Shown here: one piece after another, positions 8,258 to 55,759 of the stretch
Position numbering within the stretch: position 1 is the first letter of the stretch
Layout: the number at the start of each line of letters is the position of its first letter
IMG/VR virus record: IMGVR_UViG_3300027721_000017
Direction: 5' to 3' (one strand)
Source of the DNA: a virus
Length of the DNA: 60,542 nt
The notes under the pieces: generated by a model
Seen by the model: only the letters and a program-made list of their open reading frames with translations
Told to the model about the DNA's origin: nothing
The model's database searches: none
Program-made: the position numbers and the translations under genes

Positions 8258-8554
8258 ATGTCAGATGAAGTGATCCTTTGCGCGGATTGTCGTTCAGAGT
8301 TCCCCTTTACCGAGAGCGAGGCAACGTTCTTCGCGTCCAAGGGGTTGACGAAGCCGCGGCGGTGCAAGCCCTGCCGCCAGAAGCGCCGCGACGCCAAGGC
8401 TACCGATATTGGTGCCGCTCCTGGTCCTACTCTCGCTGCTTCTCCCAAGGCCAGGACCCAGTGGGTTGGTGGTGGGGAGACTGAGGAGCCCCGCCGCAGC
8501 AAGGGCGGGCGTCGGGATCGCCGGCGTGACCGGCACGACGATCAAGGCTTCTAA
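8258..8554 (+). CDS. Zinc-ribbon protein with basic C-terminus (CADCRSEF...CKPCRQKRR)
   Basis: Cys pairs and Arg-rich tail in the translation. Confidence 0.55.
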   Translation: MSDEVILCADCRSEFPFTESEATFFASKGLTKPRRCKPCRQKRRDAKATDIGAAPGPTLAASPKARTQWVGGGETEEPRRSKGGRRDRRRDRHDDQGF

Positions 8555-8672: not shown

Positions 8673-9005
8673 ATGATACAGCTACGACCGTTAACGCTTT
8701 GTGTCTTGATGATCGTACCCGCCTGCAGCCTCAGCGCGGCTAGCGCCACGGGGGTGTCGTGGACCTATGAGCGGAAGCTCGAGAGAGTCCAGGAAGAGCG
8801 ACAAACCTACACAGCCCTCGCGAACTCCGCGATGGGCATGAGTGAAAGAGCCTTCTCTTTCGCTCAGAAGTACCAGGAGACCCTGGGCATTTGCATGGCC
8901 AAGCTTTACGGCCGTGACACGCTGGAGCTTATGCAGGCTGCTTCTTATAAGAAAGGAGGAATCGGTGGACCTCTCGATGTGCGGAAACAAAGCCGACTTC
9001 CTTGA
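8673..9005 (+). CDS. Putative secreted/lipoprotein-like small protein
   Basis: N-terminal hydrophobic segment ending VPAC|S (lipobox-like). Confidence 0.45.
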   Translation: MIQLRPLTLCVLMIVPACSLSAASATGVSWTYERKLERVQEERQTYTALANSAMGMSERAFSFAQKYQETLGICMAKLYGRDTLELMQAASYKKGGIGGPLDVRKQSRLP

Positions 9006-9579
9006 CCGGTATCGGGGGAACGTCGCAATCAATGTGAAGTACCGCGGAGATCCAAAGCTTTCGAAGGAGACGTTGGCCCAGCTCTCGGCGCTCGATGGCG
9101 CCACCAGGGACACCGTCGTTCGTTTTGCTGAGGAAGCTCTTCGTGAGACCTGGTGGGCTACGATGCAGGAACGCTCACGGGAGCTTGGTCTTGGAGACCT
9201 CTGGAGCGATGGACGTTCTGGCGGGTGGCTCGTCTTCAAGATGACCATCAGTCAGCTTGAGGACAAGATCTACGAAGCAGAGCGCCACTGTCGGAACTGC
9301 GACGTCACATTTGAGCAGCACGTAGACGGCAAGTGCTTGTTCGACTCTTCTCCGTTCTCGTCTGACGCTCCGGAGCATTTGGCGCTGTGGGAAACGTTTC
9401 GAACCTTCTCCTCCGAAGTGAAGGATTCTCTCCAGTCCGTGGGGGACAACTTCGAGGAAGAAGTACTTTTTCAGCTGGAGAATCTGGATGACTACACAAC
9501 TGGACTTCCTCCCCTCGGAGGCTCCGAAGCCAATCCCGCAGCCTTTGAAGAAAACGCCGACGAAGAAGCTGGCCCCTGA
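8965..9579 (+). CDS. Hypothetical protein carrying the recurring C-x2-C...HVDGKCLFD module
   Basis: AAAGGAGG RBS at 8953-8960. Motif CRNCDVTFEQHVDGKCLFDSSPF. The track start at 8842 is probably too far upstream. Confidence 0.5.
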   Translation: MDLSMCGNKADFLDRYRGNVAINVKYRGDPKLSKETLAQLSALDGATRDTVVRFAEEALRETWWATMQERSRELGLGDLWSDGRSGGWLVFKMTISQLEDKIYEAERHCRNCDVTFEQHVDGKCLFDSSPFSSDAPEHLALWETFRTFSSEVKDSLQSVGDNFEEEVLFQLENLDDYTTGLPPLGGSEANPAAFEENADEEAGP

Positions 9580-27011: not shown

Positions 27012-27272
27012 TTGACGATTCACGTTACGAAGGATGGGACGCCTACCGTGTTCGATGGTCCGAAGGCGGTCAATTTTTTTCGCATGAACGTCCTGCTCCA
27101 GGGGATGAGGACGGAGCTCAAAACCGGGATGAGGATGTCTCGAGGCCCTTCGTGCTTCACTCGCGTGAAGCAGGAGTACGGACTCAAGGGAAACAAGCAG
27201 AAGTTGATTGAGCAGTTCGAGAAGCTGATCGCCGAAGAGAACGAGAAGATGGAGTACAAGCGCGATGCCTAA
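27012..27272 (+). CDS. Small hypothetical protein (86 aa)
   Basis: AAAGGAGG RBS before TTG 27012. GGGTATAAG promoter-like motif 25 nt upstream. Confidence 0.5.
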   Translation: MTIHVTKDGTPTVFDGPKAVNFFRMNVLLQGMRTELKTGMRMSRGPSCFTRVKQEYGLKGNKQKLIEQFEKLIAEENEKMEYKRDA

Positions 27273-27909
27273 CTGGTGCGAGTGTTTACTCAAGGTCACA
27301 GGTCCTGCGAAAGAGATCGCGAAGTTCAAGAAGAAGGCAAAGGGTAAGGGTCCCAACCCCGTCAAGGGAGATAAGACGTTTCCGTTGTCTCTCCACGCCC
27401 TCGTGCCGCAGCCTGCGAAGTTCAAGAAGGAAGGTTCCGACTGGTACAATTGGCGCCTCGCCAACTGGGGCACCAAGTGGGCCGTCGATTCCCGGATCGT
27501 ACAGGAGGACAAGGAGCTGGTGGAGTACGGCTTCGATTCAGCCTGGGCTCCGCCGATGGAGTGGCTCGCTCAGGTTGGCCCGAAGTTCCCGAAGCTTTCT
27601 TTTCGCCTCTGGTACGCCGAAGGCGGCTGCGACTTCGCGGGCGTCTACACGGTGGAAGACGACCACGCGAGCAACGAAGAGAAGGACTTCATCGAAGCGC
27701 AAATAGAGGAACGTGGGAGCTACCAGGTCTGCTGCGGCTACTGCGACAACGAAATGGAGATCACCTCGAAAGACGAAGCACGCATCTGTGAGGAGTGTCT
27801 CCAGCACCGCTGTGACAACTGTGGCAAACAAGACGACGTCCACGTCGACGGGAAGTGCCCCTTCGATTCAACGAAGTTCAAGAACATCTCAGCGGAGAAG
27901 ATCAAATGA
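27265..27909 (+). CDS. DUF1281/YubB (Api92-like ferredoxin-fold) family protein with C-terminal CCHC module
   Basis: MPNWCECLLKV...WYNWRLANWGTKWAVD matches the NWGTKW signature as recalled. C-terminal CDNCGKQDDVHVDGKCPFDSTKF. Confidence 0.6.
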   Translation: MPNWCECLLKVTGPAKEIAKFKKKAKGKGPNPVKGDKTFPLSLHALVPQPAKFKKEGSDWYNWRLANWGTKWAVDSRIVQEDKELVEYGFDSAWAPPMEWLAQVGPKFPKLSFRLWYAEGGCDFAGVYTVEDDHASNEEKDFIEAQIEERGSYQVCCGYCDNEMEITSKDEARICEECLQHRCDNCGKQDDVHVDGKCPFDSTKFKNISAEKIK

Positions 27910-31565: not shown

Positions 31566-32627
31566 ATGAGCAAGGACGCAATCGAAGTGATCTTCAGTTT
31601 CGACACTACCGGGTCAATGTACCCCTGCCTGACGCAGGTTCGCCGCGAGGTCAAAAAGACAGTGAAGCGTCTCTTCAAGGACGTCCCTGACATCCGGGTG
31701 GGAGTCATCGCGCACGGGGACTATTGTGACGCTGGGTCTACGTACGTCACCAAGCACCTCGACTTCAGCACGGACCAGAAGAAGATCGCCGACTTCATCA
31801 CCAACGTGAAGCCGACGGGCGGCGGTGACGCAGCTGAGTGCTACGAGCTCGTGCTGCACGAGTCCAAGACGTTCAGCTGGTCAGCAGGCAAGAAGAAGGT
31901 TCTCGTACTCATCGGCGATGACGTGCCGCACGGGAAGAACGAGGCGCAGAACACCAAGAAGTTGGACTGGCGCAACGAGCTCAAGCTGCTGCTCGAGGCG
32001 GGTATCCAGGTCTACGGCGTTCAGGCCCTGAACCGGAAGCACGCGACGAAGTTCTACGAGGACATCGCGGAGGAGACGGGCGGCTTCCACCTGGAGCTCG
32101 ACCAGTTCTCCAGCATCACCGACATGATCTTCGCGGTCGCCTACAAGCAGCAGGGAGACGACAAGCTCAAGGAGTTCGAAGAAGAGCTGAAGGCTGACGG
32201 TCGCCTGAACCGTTCGATGCGCCGGAGCTTCAACCGGATGCTCGGGCGCAAGGACGAGGCGGCGTCGAAGAGCAACCTGGACGCTGTTCCGCCAGGTCGC
32301 TTCCAGATGATGAAGGTGGACGACGACACGCCCATCTCGGAGTTCGTTCGCGCCCAGGGCGTCGAGTTCAAGACGGGCCGCGGCTTCTACGAGTTCACCA
32401 AGTCCGTGAAGGTGCAGCACTACAAGGAAGTCATTCTGCAGGATCGCGCGACAGGAGATTTCTACTCGGGCGACAAGGCTCGGGATATCGCTGGCATGCC
32501 CATCGGCGAAGATGCGACGGTGAAGCCCGGGGATCTCGGCGCTTACCGCTGCTTCATCCAGAGCACCTCGAACAACAGGAAGCTTCTCGGCGGTACGCGA
32601 TTCCTGTATGAGGTCTCCGACTACTGA
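31566..32627 (+). CDS. von Willebrand factor type A (vWA) domain protein
   Basis: MIDAS-like DTTGSM. Rossmann-like alternation. VLVLIGDDVPHG. 353 aa. Confidence 0.75.
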   Translation: MSKDAIEVIFSFDTTGSMYPCLTQVRREVKKTVKRLFKDVPDIRVGVIAHGDYCDAGSTYVTKHLDFSTDQKKIADFITNVKPTGGGDAAECYELVLHESKTFSWSAGKKKVLVLIGDDVPHGKNEAQNTKKLDWRNELKLLLEAGIQVYGVQALNRKHATKFYEDIAEETGGFHLELDQFSSITDMIFAVAYKQQGDDKLKEFEEELKADGRLNRSMRRSFNRMLGRKDEAASKSNLDAVPPGRFQMMKVDDDTPISEFVRAQGVEFKTGRGFYEFTKSVKVQHYKEVILQDRATGDFYSGDKARDIAGMPIGEDATVKPGDLGAYRCFIQSTSNNRKLLGGTRFLYEVSDY

Positions 32628-32935: not shown

Positions 32936-32940
32936 AGGTT

Positions 32941-33013
32941 TGGGGACTAGCTCAATTGGTAGAGCGCGCGGCTCTGACCCGCGAGGTTTCAGGTTCAAGC
33001 CCTGAGTCCCCAG
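32941..33013 (+). tRNA. tRNA-Gln (CTG anticodon)
   Basis: Acceptor tggggac/gtcccca. D-arm tagctcaattggtagagc. Anticodon stem-loop cgcgg-ctCTGac-ccgcg. T-arm tcaggTTCAAGCcctga. Confidence 0.8.
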
Positions 33014-33024
33014 TTGGTAGCACT

Positions 33025-33098
33025 GGGATCGTAGGCGAGCGGTCTAAGCCACCGACCTTTTAAGTCGATGATCGTGGGTTCGAATCCCACCGGTCCCA
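33025..33098 (+). tRNA. tRNA-Lys (TTT anticodon)
   Basis: Acceptor gggatcg/cggtccc (one G-U). Anticodon loop ctTTTaa. T-arm gtgggTTCGAATcccac. Confidence 0.7.
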
Positions 33099-33099
33099 C

Positions 33100-33171
33100 A
33101 GACGCGTAGCTCAGGGGTAGAGCGGCTGCCTTACACGCAGCGGGTCGGGGGTTCGAAGCCCTCCGCGTCTA
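33100..33171 (+). tRNA. tRNA-Val (TAC anticodon)
   Basis: Acceptor agacgcg/cgcgtct. D-arm tagctcaggggtagagc. Anticodon stem-loop gctgc-ctTACac-gcagc. T-arm gggggTTCGAAGccctc. Confidence 0.8.
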
Positions 33172-33172
33172 C

Positions 33173-33487
33173 ATGAAAAAGAGAGCATCTCCGCAACAGA
33201 TTTTCGCCGCCAAGCTGCGCGCAGCTGATGAAGCGTATGTACGGAAACACCGGAAGCCTTGCCAAGGGGTATTTATCGTTCCCCCGAGAGACAAGGTCTA
33301 CTCGTACCTGTCGAAGAAGTTCGACATTCCCTTTGGAGACGTTGGTTACTACTTCACGTATTCACGTTCATGCACACATGAGTGGAACGAGGGCGCTTGT
33401 TCGTTGTGCCCTGTTCCCGCGTGTTGTACAGGATCCCCATGCGCCCAGACACCAAACAAGTTATCATCGAAACGTCAATCGCGATGA
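33173..33487 (+). CDS. Hypothetical Cys-rich protein lying between tRNA genes (weak)
   Basis: Track ORF only. Confidence 0.3.
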   Translation: MKKRASPQQIFAAKLRAADEAYVRKHRKPCQGVFIVPPRDKVYSYLSKKFDIPFGDVGYYFTYSRSCTHEWNEGACSLCPVPACCTGSPCAQTPNKLSSKRQSR

Positions 33488-33537
33488 TCCCCGTCATCTT
33501 CGTAATTCTGTTGATGTTGTTCTGACCTCGTAGCATC

Positions 33538-33609
33538 GCGGGCATAACTCAGGGGTAGAGTCACAGCCTTCCAAGCTGTTGGTCGTGGGTTCGAATCCCA
33601 CTGCCCGCT
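33538..33609 (+). tRNA. tRNA-Gly (TCC anticodon)
   Basis: Acceptor gcgggca/tgcccgc. D-arm taactcaggggtagagt. Anticodon stem-loop acagc-ctTCCaa-gctgt. T-arm gtgggTTCGAATcccac. Confidence 0.85.
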
Positions 33610-33615
33610 CTCGCA

Positions 33616-33687
33616 GGCCCCATCGACTAAGGGCTAGGTCGCCACCCTTTCAAGGTGTGAATCCGGGTTCGAATCCCGGTGGGGTCA
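33616..33687 (+). tRNA. tRNA-Glu (TTC anticodon)
   Basis: Acceptor ggcccca/tggggtc (one G-U). Anticodon loop ctTTCaa. T-arm ccgggTTCGAATcccgg. Confidence 0.75.
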
Positions 33688-33806
33688 CATGTCCGAATGT
33701 CCGAAGCACAAGCACCTCACTGACAAACAGATCCAAGCGATAACGGAGACCGAGGCCGCGGTGTGCGCCTGGCTCTGGGTTCGCTGGTGGATCCTTCGAG
33801 GAACAA

Positions 33807-36514: not shown

Positions 36515-36727
36515 ATGATCGACGGTTGTCAAAACTGTCATCACGATAAGTCAACGCACCTACCCGACGGCTCCTGTCTCTTTGAGCCGACGAAGTTCAA
36601 GCCGTACCCTTCGATATACATTACGACCGGGCGCCTCAGCAGCAGCGAGCCCAACATCGCGACACTCCCGAAGAAGAAGCAGGACCGTTGGGAAGCTGTC
36701 TGGAAGTTTCTGACCACCCCTTTGTAA
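36515..36727 (+). CDS. Small protein with N-terminal CCHC module (MIDGCQNCHHDKSTHLPDGSCLFEPTKF)
   Basis: Internal ATG 36515. Motif shared with four other genes. Confidence 0.45.
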   Translation: MIDGCQNCHHDKSTHLPDGSCLFEPTKFKPYPSIYITTGRLSSSEPNIATLPKKKQDRWEAVWKFLTTPL

Positions 36728-36735
36728 GAGGAACA

Positions 36736-38826
36736 ATGATCCCGAACACCCAACTCCGGCTCGTGTCGTCGAGTCCTATCGCCGAGAGCGCCGAATTCGG
36801 CATCTCGATGAACGACACGGCTCACATCATGTCGATTCTCCGAGACCAGCTGTACTCGGATAAGATTCTCGCGGTTCTCCGCGAGTACGGCTCCAACGCC
36901 TGGGACGCCCACCGAGACGCCGGAAAGGCGGAGCTCCCCATCAAGGTGACGTTGCCCACGGCGATGGAGCCGACGCTGACAATCCGAGACTTCGGCCAGG
37001 GGCTCACTCCCGAGGGCGTCTTCAAGGTCTTTACGCAGTATGGCGCCAGCACGAAGCGGAACAGTGACAACTCCGTGGGCATGCTCGGCATCGGTTCGAA
37101 GAGCGGCTTCGCCTACTCCGACAGCTTCACCGTCACGTCGTACTGTGAGGGCATGAAGCGGACCTATGTTGCGGTCCTGGACCCGTCAGAGAAGGGGATC
37201 ATCAATCTTCTGTGCGCGGAAGGCTGTGGCGAAGAGACAGGGGTCGCGATTTCAATCGCGGTGCGGCCCGCGGACCTTCGCAACTTCGAGCACACCGCGA
37301 AGACGCTGTTCAAGTACTTCGTCCCACGCCCGGACATCAACACGGAGCTGCCCCAGCTTCCCCCGGCGCAATCGACTCTGAAGCACGGAGTCATCTACGA
37401 GAAGGAAGAGGGGTACTACAGCGACAACAAGTGGGTCGCTGTCATGGGGTGCGTTTCGTACAACGTCAACCTCGATCAGCTTCGAGGTATCGACGCTACG
37501 CCTGAAGGAGGAGTCGCTTCCTTCCTGAGCGGTATATCGGGGGCCCTCTACTTCGACATCGGAGAGGTGCAGGTCAGCGCCTCTCGCGAAGAGCTAAAGT
37601 ACAGCTCGGAGACCAAGCTGGCATTGGTCAAGAAGTTCAGCGAGCTCGTCGAAGAGTACGTGAAGAAGGCTCTTGACGACATCATGCTGAAGACGAACAC
37701 CCCTTGGGAACGCCGAGTCAAAGCCCAGGTTCTGGGCAAGCTTCATCTCCCGGTTCCTCAGGATACGAAGGACCTGCTCTCCACGAATGTGGCGCTGAAG
37801 GACAAAATCCCCGCGGGCATCGTCATCACGCAGAATCGTACGCACTGCACCAGCATCGCGGTCAACGAAGGAACTCGCTTCGTTCTGGTAGACGATCAGC
37901 GCGCCCTCCCCGGGTTTCAAGGAATGCACTACACCGATTACTTCATCCGAGCCGTAGACAAGGCGGGGCACTTCCGCACAGCGCACATCCAGTGGGATCC
38001 TATCGAGCTCAAACTCAAAGAGATGTGTAAGGCGGCGGACATCGAAGGTATTCCCGTCATCAAGCTGTCGTCTCTCCCGTGGACCACTCCGTCACGCAAC
38101 GCCACAGGGCGGACGATCAACCCGAAGCACCGGATGAAGGTCTTCAAGTTTCTGCCGGAGGAGGGCTACAGCAAACCCTGGTCCGACTCTTGGGAACCAG
38201 CGGACATCGTACCGTCGAAGGATGATGTGTTCGTCCTCATCCAGTGGTTCCAGACCCAAGGGTTCAACATGGGAGAGTACTACCGAGCGGACAAGGCACT
38301 GGCTGAGGCGTTCGGAGGAGCTCTCCCGACGATCTACGCCTACAAGACGACTGAGAAGAAGCCCGTTGAATCGAAGGACTGTCTGGGTACGTACTACCCG
38401 GATTGGCGCAAGAAGTGGGTCCCCACACTGCTCACGCAGCAAGTGAAGGATCAGTTCTCACTGCTCCAGTGGGTTCAGCTTGCCAACAGCTCGCCGCACT
38501 ACTGGCGGTATCGGAACGTGGACAAGAAGATCTACGACAAGATGGTGGCGGAGCTCGGAGAGACGCACCTCATCACACTGATGGTGAAGAACATCTACGA
38601 AGGGCAGGCGTACTTCAAGAAGTACCCGAAGTTGCAGCCCGCTCTCGCGCAGCTCGAGAACAGGGCGCCAGGCGTGACTGTCAAAGACAGCCCGGCGCAG
38701 AAGACGCTGGAGACGCTCACGAAGAAGTATCCGCTGCTCACCCTCGAGAACCTTTGCATCGCAGATGTTTGGGGAGAGCGCGCCGCGGACTGGGTGCAGT
38801 ACATCAAACTCATCGACAAAGGATAG
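36736..38826 (+). CDS. GHKL (Bergerat-fold) ATPase domain protein, 696 aa; possibly rIIA-like
   Basis: N box EYGSNAWDA. G1 IRDFGQGL. G2 GMLGIGSKSGFAYS (Hsp90/MORC-like order). AGAGGA RBS before ATG 36736. Size and domain order resemble T4 rIIA (about 725 aa, N-terminal HATPase) as recalled. Confidence 0.55.
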   Translation: MIPNTQLRLVSSSPIAESAEFGISMNDTAHIMSILRDQLYSDKILAVLREYGSNAWDAHRDAGKAELPIKVTLPTAMEPTLTIRDFGQGLTPEGVFKVFTQYGASTKRNSDNSVGMLGIGSKSGFAYSDSFTVTSYCEGMKRTYVAVLDPSEKGIINLLCAEGCGEETGVAISIAVRPADLRNFEHTAKTLFKYFVPRPDINTELPQLPPAQSTLKHGVIYEKEEGYYSDNKWVAVMGCVSYNVNLDQLRGIDATPEGGVASFLSGISGALYFDIGEVQVSASREELKYSSETKLALVKKFSELVEEYVKKALDDIMLKTNTPWERRVKAQVLGKLHLPVPQDTKDLLSTNVALKDKIPAGIVITQNRTHCTSIAVNEGTRFVLVDDQRALPGFQGMHYTDYFIRAVDKAGHFRTAHIQWDPIELKLKEMCKAADIEGIPVIKLSSLPWTTPSRNATGRTINPKHRMKVFKFLPEEGYSKPWSDSWEPADIVPSKDDVFVLIQWFQTQGFNMGEYYRADKALAEAFGGALPTIYAYKTTEKKPVESKDCLGTYYPDWRKKWVPTLLTQQVKDQFSLLQWVQLANSSPHYWRYRNVDKKIYDKMVAELGETHLITLMVKNIYEGQAYFKKYPKLQPALAQLENRAPGVTVKDSPAQKTLETLTKKYPLLTLENLCIADVWGERAADWVQYIKLIDKG

Positions 38827-55513: not shown

Positions 55514-55759
55514 TCAATCGGGAGTAGGTTGACACTCGCCGCAGGCGCCCTCGTGCTCCGGGTCTTTCGCAGTCCCGCCGCAACGACCGCAAGTGATCCG
55601 GGCCTTCACCGTCTTCCGTTCGGTTCTCACTTTACCGGGTAAATAGTCAGACGCCTCGAAGAGGCACTTTCCGTCCACGTGCTGGGTCACATCCAGCCCG
55701 CAGTTCCCGCAGGACCGCTGCATCACGGGCATGCGTATCTTGTAGATTCGTTCACTCAC
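55514..55759 (-). CDS. Small zinc-ribbon protein with CCHC module (CGNCGLDVTQHVDGKCLFEASDY) plus a second CxxC...CxxC
   Basis: Track ORF. Confidence 0.5.
   Translation of the reverse strand: MSERIYKIRMPVMQRSCGNCGLDVTQHVDGKCLFEASDYLPGKVRTERKTVKARITCGRCGGTAKDPEHEGACGECQPTPD

Follow-up and report, generated by a model that had tools for sequence, protein, structure and literature searches.

Five copies of a short module with the pattern C-x2-C-x6-H-x4(5)-C-[LP]-F-[DE]-x-[ST]-x-[FYW] and a length of 23-25 residues were found in the window, i.e., the complete stretch of 60,542 nucleotides of viral DNA analyzed here (IMG/VR record IMGVR_UViG_3300027721_000017). Judged from its sequence, this module is a previously undescribed family of a known general kind, namely the short Cys3His zinc knuckle, and within all collections searched it is confined to one group of uncultivated, MVP-encoding phages of ~170-195 kb. 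The residues Cys1, Cys4, His11, and Cys16 very probably hold one zinc ion, since the ligand set is conserved, includes a C-x2-C knuckle and has a register in common with retroviral knuckles. With considerably more reserve, it is proposed that the module could be a docking head for one shared ligand.

Copies of the module and their carriers in the window

A preliminary description of this DNA had reported the same motif of ~22 amino acids in five genes. All of these copies are present exactly as quoted there, namely at positions 9289-9357 (+) in gene 8965-9579 (CRNCDVTFEQHVDGKCLFDSSPF), at 27811-27879 (+) in the C-terminus of 27265-27909 (CDNCGKQDDVHVDGKCPFDSTKF), at 36527-36598 (+) in the N-terminus of 36515-36727 (CQNCHHDKSTHLPDGSCLFEPTKF), at 55643-55711 (-) in 55514-55759 (CGNCGLDVTQHVDGKCLFEASDY), and at 55857-55925 (-) in 55752-55979 (CGHCKLPHRTHVEDKCLFDATSF). 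The strict peptide pattern matched the six-frame translation five times, compared to no match in 100 codon shuffles. A degenerate DNA pattern for the form with four residues between His and the last Cys (x4) found the copies in all genes except 36515-36727, i.e., four, compared to none in 100 dinucleotide shuffles. With a local HMM derived from these copies, all five were recovered from the six-frame translation at E-values of 1e-15 to 1e-16, and as the next match had an E-value above 1, the window holds exactly five. The spacing of six to eight residues between the second Cys and the His that had been given previously needs to be narrowed to x6, which is found in all five copies. Between His and the last Cys, four copies have x4, and the one in 36515-36727 has x5.

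In a nucleotide alignment of the five copies, TGT/TGC, GTA/GTC/GTG/GTT, and GGC/GGG/GGA alternate at conserved residues. Third codon positions thus vary freely, which points to selection at the amino acid level and rules out a DNA repeat or mobile element that is translated by accident. With the module masked, the five carriers fell into five different BLAST clusters (E<1e-3), so that their characterization as otherwise unrelated holds at the sequence level.

The gene at 8965-9579 (+) encodes a protein of 204 amino acids belonging to a family with the core GRSGGWLV, in which the module lies internally at residues 109-131. Its ~40 orthologues, with identities down to 43%, have all kept C, C, H, C, and the following F. 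A homolog with 31% identity (P0058) has the GRSGGWLV core in common with it, however, the module is absent. A few hundred bases upstream of this carrier a small gene for a C4 zinc ribbon of the 'zf_Tbcl' type (PF13451) is located at 8258-8554 (+), an arrangement that is kept in related contigs (L106-L108).

The second carrier, 27265-27909 (+), encodes 214 amino acids and was correctly recognized before as a DUF1281 protein: residues 79-149 match PF18406 (DUF1281_C, Api92-like) with E=4e-10 and 39.8 bits at a gathering cutoff of 22.8. The module falls outside this domain, in a C-terminal extension in which an ordinary C4 zinc ribbon (residues ~157-180, CCGYC...CEEC) directly precedes it. Orthologues of this carrier in related phage contigs retain the module, whereas DUF1281-like homologs of cultured phages, e.g., of Prochlorococcus phage P-HM2, stop before the extension and are devoid of it. 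Together with P0058, module-less homologs exist for two carriers, which characterizes the module as an add-on that is present or absent per scaffold.

The carrier encoded at 36515-36727 (+) is only 70 amino acids long and consists of a module of the x5 variant at the N-terminus and, behind it, a peptide resembling DNA polymerase A (TGRLSSSEPNIATLP). Its match to PF00476 (E=0.004) is below the gathering score and covers only model positions ~111-145, and the motifs A, B, and C of DNA polymerase A are absent from the whole window; a full DNA polymerase family A domain can therefore be dismissed for this gene. A derivation of the module itself from DNA polymerase A was likewise rejected, because Pfam aligns the peptide after the module and not the module. 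A motif-A-like string in an ORF of locus L077 was without support from Pfam. The peptide, TGRLSSxxPNxxN[IL]P, is found 10-25 residues after the module in 36515-36727, in P0060/P0205, in an ORF of L025 (236-790, -), and in P0009-P0015, and in some orthologues it is extended to an IRxAF-like LRRLF. Across module carriers these peptides match PF00476 at positions ~111-145 with E-values of 3e-5 to 4e-3, and some of the ~73-aa carriers containing them bear the JGI annotation 'DNA polymerase I-like'. The peptide could be a decoy or mimic, or what is left of a lost polA. The 70-aa gene is immediately followed by an rIIA-like gene (HATPase_c_3, 36688-38826, +) and this in turn by an rIIB-like gene (~38.8-40.0 kb, +); the latter was assigned by a match to PF26926 in L023, a contig identical to the window.

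The remaining two carriers form a tandem pair on the minus strand. In the protein of 81 amino acids encoded at 55514-55759 (-), residues 17-39 make up the module, which is predicted to lie at a beta-hairpin tip, and the C-terminal part (residues ~57-76) contains a C4 ribbon (CGRCGG...CGEC) that is missing in several orthologues (P0004, P0006, P0013). The adjoining gene in the same orientation, 55752-55979 (-), encodes ~73-75 amino acids and probably starts at the ATG at 55973, as is the case in P0001. In related contigs the array matching this pair comprises three module genes. Orthologues with intact ligands were found for all three small carriers (36515-36727, 55514-55759, and 55752-55979).

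Conservation, predicted structure, and distribution of the module

A sequence logo was built from 122 instances of the x4 type. The four ligands reach 4.3 bits, while the flanks on both sides remain at 0.3-0.4 bits, with a sharp drop in conservation at both edges of the module. Nine non-ligand positions exceed 2 bits, namely N/H3 (2.95), D13 and G14 (2.4 each), K15 (3.2), L/P17 (3.3), F18 (4.25), E/D19 (2.6), A/S/P20 (2.4), and T/S21 (3.4), to which an aromatic residue at position 23 (3.0) has to be added. Lower values were obtained for V/A/I12 (1.9), P25 (1.3), and the x6 loop (~1). On average, the module has a net charge of -0.5, and its carriers are net acidic as well.

The module is placed near the N-terminus, internally, or near the C-terminus of its carriers, which are mostly 64-210 amino acids long (5th to 95th percentile). 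When it was masked in 162 module ORFs from the fetched loci, these ORFs separated into 66 BLAST clusters, which by sequence comparison would correspond to about 60 real carrier families, a few of the clusters being chance matches. The only recognizable parts of carriers are DUF1281_C and the DNA polymerase A-like peptide. Several predicted products of 48-60 amino acids and one ORF of 42 amino acids consist of little else than the module. In about one fifth of the representatives, judged by eye, the module is directly followed by x-P-M-[TS]-x-x-E-[WFLM]; it was seen among P0059-P0202 and in loci L025, L037, L054, and L081. This stretch is probably a helix N-cap, and the fact that it is shared suggests a larger ancestral unit of module plus helix. 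Some carriers that appear unrelated may accordingly be diverged paralogues and not independent fusions, and the diversity of carriers probably reflects such diverged paralogy in part. Since all copies come from a single narrow phage clade, recent common ancestry might also account for part of the conservation, an explanation that is weakened by the complete divergence of the flanks.

AlphaFold2 models were generated for two carriers. For the 204-aa protein (23 orthologues) the mean pLDDT was 83, and the blocks of 10 residues over positions 101-140, which include the module, averaged 86-95; here, the module lies between a helix of residues 95-107 and a helix of residues 136-172. For the 81-aa protein (9 sequences) the pLDDT was ~76-82 over residues 11-50, and the long beta-hairpin carrying the module at its tip is formed by strands 5-17 and 41-54. 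The DSSP string within the module is identical in both models, with isolated bridges and, immediately ahead of the His, a helix of one turn. Fold searches for these two carriers yielded no assignment. Since the elements flanking the module pair with each other in both cases, the N- and C-termini of the module are predicted to be close together, which would explain its insertion at protein ends or hairpin tips.

A profile of the motif comprising 33 columns matched 395 protein clusters at E<=1e-3 among 1.84 billion cluster representatives. The 150 matches that were listed are 50-234 amino acids long, and all 144 new cluster representatives among them contain the full ligand pattern; several matched proteins carry two copies of the module. 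The C/C/H/C ligands are also kept in all of the ~55 orthologue copies examined, so that the conservation of Cys and His, which the preliminary description had named as a point to be checked in orthologues, is borne out. A further homolog search with an alignment of 109 module sequences gave only six candidates and added nothing.

In IMG/VR, the DNA pattern of the module was found at 20 loci, nearly all of them in four related contigs of 168-194 kb, and in the metagenomes of JGI and ENA at 77 loci, many of which belong to the contig-name series Ga03152xx. Single phage contigs contain at least 14, at least 10, at least 9, and at least 4 copies, numbers that are lower bounds as only copies inside the fetched flanks were counted. 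Module genes often stand in tandem arrays of three to five small genes, back to back on the same strand. Matches in L005, L012, L047, L079, and L097 were excluded as low-complexity or otherwise spurious, and a picorna-like RNA-virus polyprotein of more than 2000 amino acids (L007, L026, L086) contains a chance match to the DNA pattern (CFKCNLNKWLHWLTVCLFDYSVF) that is unrelated to the module family.

The scan of 185,579 cellular species genomes with the DNA pattern revealed no real copy, the only two matches both containing in-frame stop codons; on this basis a cellular or prophage origin of the module was rejected. Among cultured phages, no nucleotide or protein match was obtained to the window, the 204-aa carrier, or the consensus module. 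Scans of Pfam, PHROGs, and NCBIfam likewise yielded no relative of the module, and the best match of a sequence profile search against the PDB was non-significant (E 0.36). A widespread generic zinc ribbon, which had been named before as the finding that would speak against the motif, is thus not what is seen. All in all, the view of a discrete, portable, zinc-knuckle-like unit on unrelated proteins is supported by these data.

The phage also has its own tmRNA, with a tag that ends in ...APEFRAAA, as well as two clusters comprising nine tRNAs, located in the window at 10605-10972 (+), 11146-12668 (+), and 32940-33688 (+). One of the tRNAs, with the anticodon TCA (33616-33688), would decode UGA; as its 73 nt fall short of the length of a true tRNA-Sec, it may be a suppressor. 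Nevertheless, 20 of the 40 larger ORFs in the window end with TGA, which makes it the most common stop codon among them.

Possible functions of the module

The suggestion of the preliminary description that the module is a portable tag with a common partner is compatible with the sequence data, a common partner being suggested by the strong conservation of residues other than the ligands. Nine such positions are nearly fixed, charged and polar ones among them, as compared to flanks that have diverged to noise, which is why we infer a docking head. The existence of module-only and two-module proteins, as well as models in which long paired elements present the module at their exposed tip, support this assumption.

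In such a scheme, the module would be a self-contained mini-domain of ~23-25 residues with one zinc bound by Cys1/Cys4/His11/Cys16, and its close termini would permit grafting onto protein ends or hairpin tips without disturbing the carrier. Within the clade it would have been multiplied by tandem duplication of small genes and also by fusion with or insertion into unrelated proteins, two routes that together account for the 10 or more copies per genome. By means of the docking head, a multitude of different small 'payload' proteins would then be recruited to a single common ligand. A protein, be it a hub of the phage or of the host, appears to be a more likely ligand than a nucleic acid, because the module is acidic and the carriers are net acidic.

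The conserved residues of a knuckle of 23 residues could, on the other hand, be mostly purely structural. The module might then be nothing but a structural zinc staple, a low-cost nucleus for the folding of very small phage proteins whose functions and partners have nothing to do with each other, with all conserved non-ligand residues being needed to build the knuckle. The small size of most carriers would fit this explanation, a passive insert would agree with the pairing of the flanking elements in the models, and L17, F18, and the aromatic residue 23 plausibly pack around the metal site. However, the strongly conserved non-ligand positions include the charged or polar residues D13, K15, E19, and T21, and they outnumber the ~5 conserved non-ligand positions of a small, hand-typed alignment of retroviral CCHC knuckles. 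Moreover, the predicted module-only products of 48-60 amino acids require the module itself to act. A purely structural role is considered rather unlikely.

Contacts with single-stranded DNA or RNA, as made by the CCHC knuckles of retroviral nucleocapsids, would turn the carriers into accessory factors of replication or transcription. The Cys3His order aligns with the retroviral knuckles if a gap of two residues is allowed, at least two groups of carriers contain the primer-contact peptide of polymerase A (TGRLSS..PN.QNIP) after the module, the 81-aa family has a Lys-rich tail, and helicase and ligase genes are found elsewhere in the window. Against this stand the acidic mean charge of the module, in which D13 and E/D19 are conserved next to only one conserved basic residue, the net acidic carriers, the lack of a match to Pfam zf-CCHC even at E<=10, and an hhalign probability of just 14%. 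Binding of nucleic acids is thus regarded as quite unlikely.

The preliminary description had further considered packaging into the virion or into a compartment, for which no support was obtained; the sole tie of the module to a capsid or MVP is their occurrence in the same genomes. At 13002-15686 (+), the window encodes a homolog of the major vault protein (MVP) of 894 amino acids, in which Vault repeats and an MVP shoulder domain (E=1e-22) were recognized; a separate gene at 31566-32627 (+) codes for a von Willebrand A protein. Close homologs of this MVP (75-82% identity) were found in three related phage contigs of ~170-190 kb and one with 42% identity in a viral contig of 10 kb. That phages encode MVPs was reported in 2023 in a preprint on phages of the human gut (10.1101/2023.11.10.566534). 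As the homologs of the MVP encoded here were found only in those same three phage contigs and the 10-kb contig, the co-occurrence with the module is restricted to a single clade and carries no independent weight.

A tag by which diverse proteins are directed into the capsid or the vault-like MVP shell would resemble the tag-plus-cargo logic of capsid targeting in phage T4 insofar as a short constant motif is combined with variable small proteins, and two of the module genes head a minus-strand block that contains a head-decoration-like protein. In T4, rIIA and rIIB are early genes. One copy of the module is located just upstream of the rIIA/rIIB-like genes, however, and others lie elsewhere, away from the minus-strand block. 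Furthermore, some copies are internal and structurally integrated in the models, and module-only proteins would be tags without cargo. Carriers that consist almost entirely of the module and internal copies at hairpin tips are hard to reconcile with a pure address-tag role, which is accordingly judged to be very improbable. A broader addressing or docking system, in which dozens of small, fast-evolving proteins per genome are plugged into one receptor, appears improbable as well. The receptor could be a host hub, with effectors being docked in the way of poxvirus PRANC, or, as a more exotic option, the vault-like MVP shell or the capsid. In the latter case, the module would be the first example of a tag for loading cargo into a vault-like compartment of a virus.

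It is most doubtful that the Cys3His site coordinates a [2Fe-2S]-type cluster or senses metals or the redox state instead of holding a structural zinc: CDGSH clusters, too, are ligated by three Cys and one His close to a D-G pair, and the best PDB sequence matches are Fe-S proteins, but these matches are non-significant (E 0.36-1.2, all above 0.3), the order and spacing of the ligands differ from those of CDGSH (C-x-C-x8-C-x3-H), and the module is far shorter than the dimeric CDGSH domain of ~39 residues.

Independently of its function, the module represents an undescribed domain family without a relative in Pfam, NCBIfam, or the PDB. It is a marker of a whole clade of uncultivated jumbo phages, and at least 395 protein clusters currently lacking annotation belong to this family. 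As its signature is short, sharply bounded, and extremely conserved, it can easily be synthesized and tested for metal and partners. Should one shared partner exist, it would point to a central node in the biology of this phage group and would offer an entry point to the function of dozens of 'hypothetical' genes in each genome. In addition, an insertable, metal-stabilized unit of ~25 residues that is predicted to be tolerated at N-terminal, internal, and C-terminal positions may be of interest to protein engineers.

Comparison with known systems

By sequence, the nearest structural class of the module is the Gag knuckle (zf-CCHC, PF00098), although membership in this family fails on spacing, profile match, and charge. 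Both have the order Cys-Cys-His-Cys within ~16 residues, a C-x2-C knuckle and H-x4-C, and both are portable and often repeated. In a comparison by hhalign with a hand-made alignment of retroviral knuckles the four ligands came to lie in register, at the low probability given above. In contrast to the spacing C-x2-C-x4-H-x4-C of zf-CCHC, however, the loop of the module is x6 in all five copies of the window as well as throughout the 156 instances of the logo set, and the last Cys is followed by an obligatory tail of 7-9 residues, [LP]-F-[DE]-x-[ST]-x-aromatic-x-P. While zf-CCHC is basic, the module is acidic, and the conserved D13 and E/D19 do not agree with a basic/aromatic surface for nucleic acids. 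Pfam zf-CCHC did not match the module at E<=10 in the five carriers, nor did it match any of the 144 representatives.

Several other families were considered and rejected. In zinc ribbons, two C-x2-C knuckles are located on beta-hairpins, whereas the second pair of the module is H-x4-C, and no zinc-ribbon family of Pfam matches it. C2HC fingers of the UBZ4/Rad18 type have the pattern C-x2-C-x9-12-H-x3-C with a helix between the second Cys and the His; the module differs by its x6 loop and the x4 between His and Cys, and no Pfam match was found. CDGSH iron-sulfur domains follow the pattern C-x-C-x2-[ST]-x3-P-x-C-D-G-[SAT]-H and are excluded by the different order and spacing of their ligands as well as by the lack of a Pfam match. 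The second half of the motif is reminiscent of intein block A (C-L-x-x-D/E-T-x-V), in which the Cys is followed by a Hint domain of ~130 amino acids. No Hint domain follows the module, many carriers (e.g., 27265-27909) end 5-15 residues after the motif, and the upstream half C-x2-C-x6-H is conserved, unlike the unconserved upstream extein.

When it comes to function, analogies are found in two viral systems. The PRANC/F-box-like motif at the C-terminus of poxvirus ankyrin proteins docks variable proteins onto the host protein Skp1. Like the module, it is a short conserved motif on a large, fast-diverging multigene family of a large DNA virus; the analogy is functional only, as PRANC is helical, metal-free, and always C-terminal, in which the module differs. 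The capsid-targeting sequence of T4 internal proteins is an unstructured N-terminal leader that is cleaved off. It is a short common peptide that sends unrelated proteins to one destination, again a functional analogy only, whereas the module is a predicted folded metal site that can be internal or make up nearly the whole protein. Finally, the Rad50 zinc hook consists of C-x2-C only, so that two chains complete the site. The predicted position of the module in the 204-aa and 81-aa carriers resembles this hook in that a Cys-based site is located at the apex of a long antiparallel pair, with the difference that all four ligands of the module are provided by one chain.
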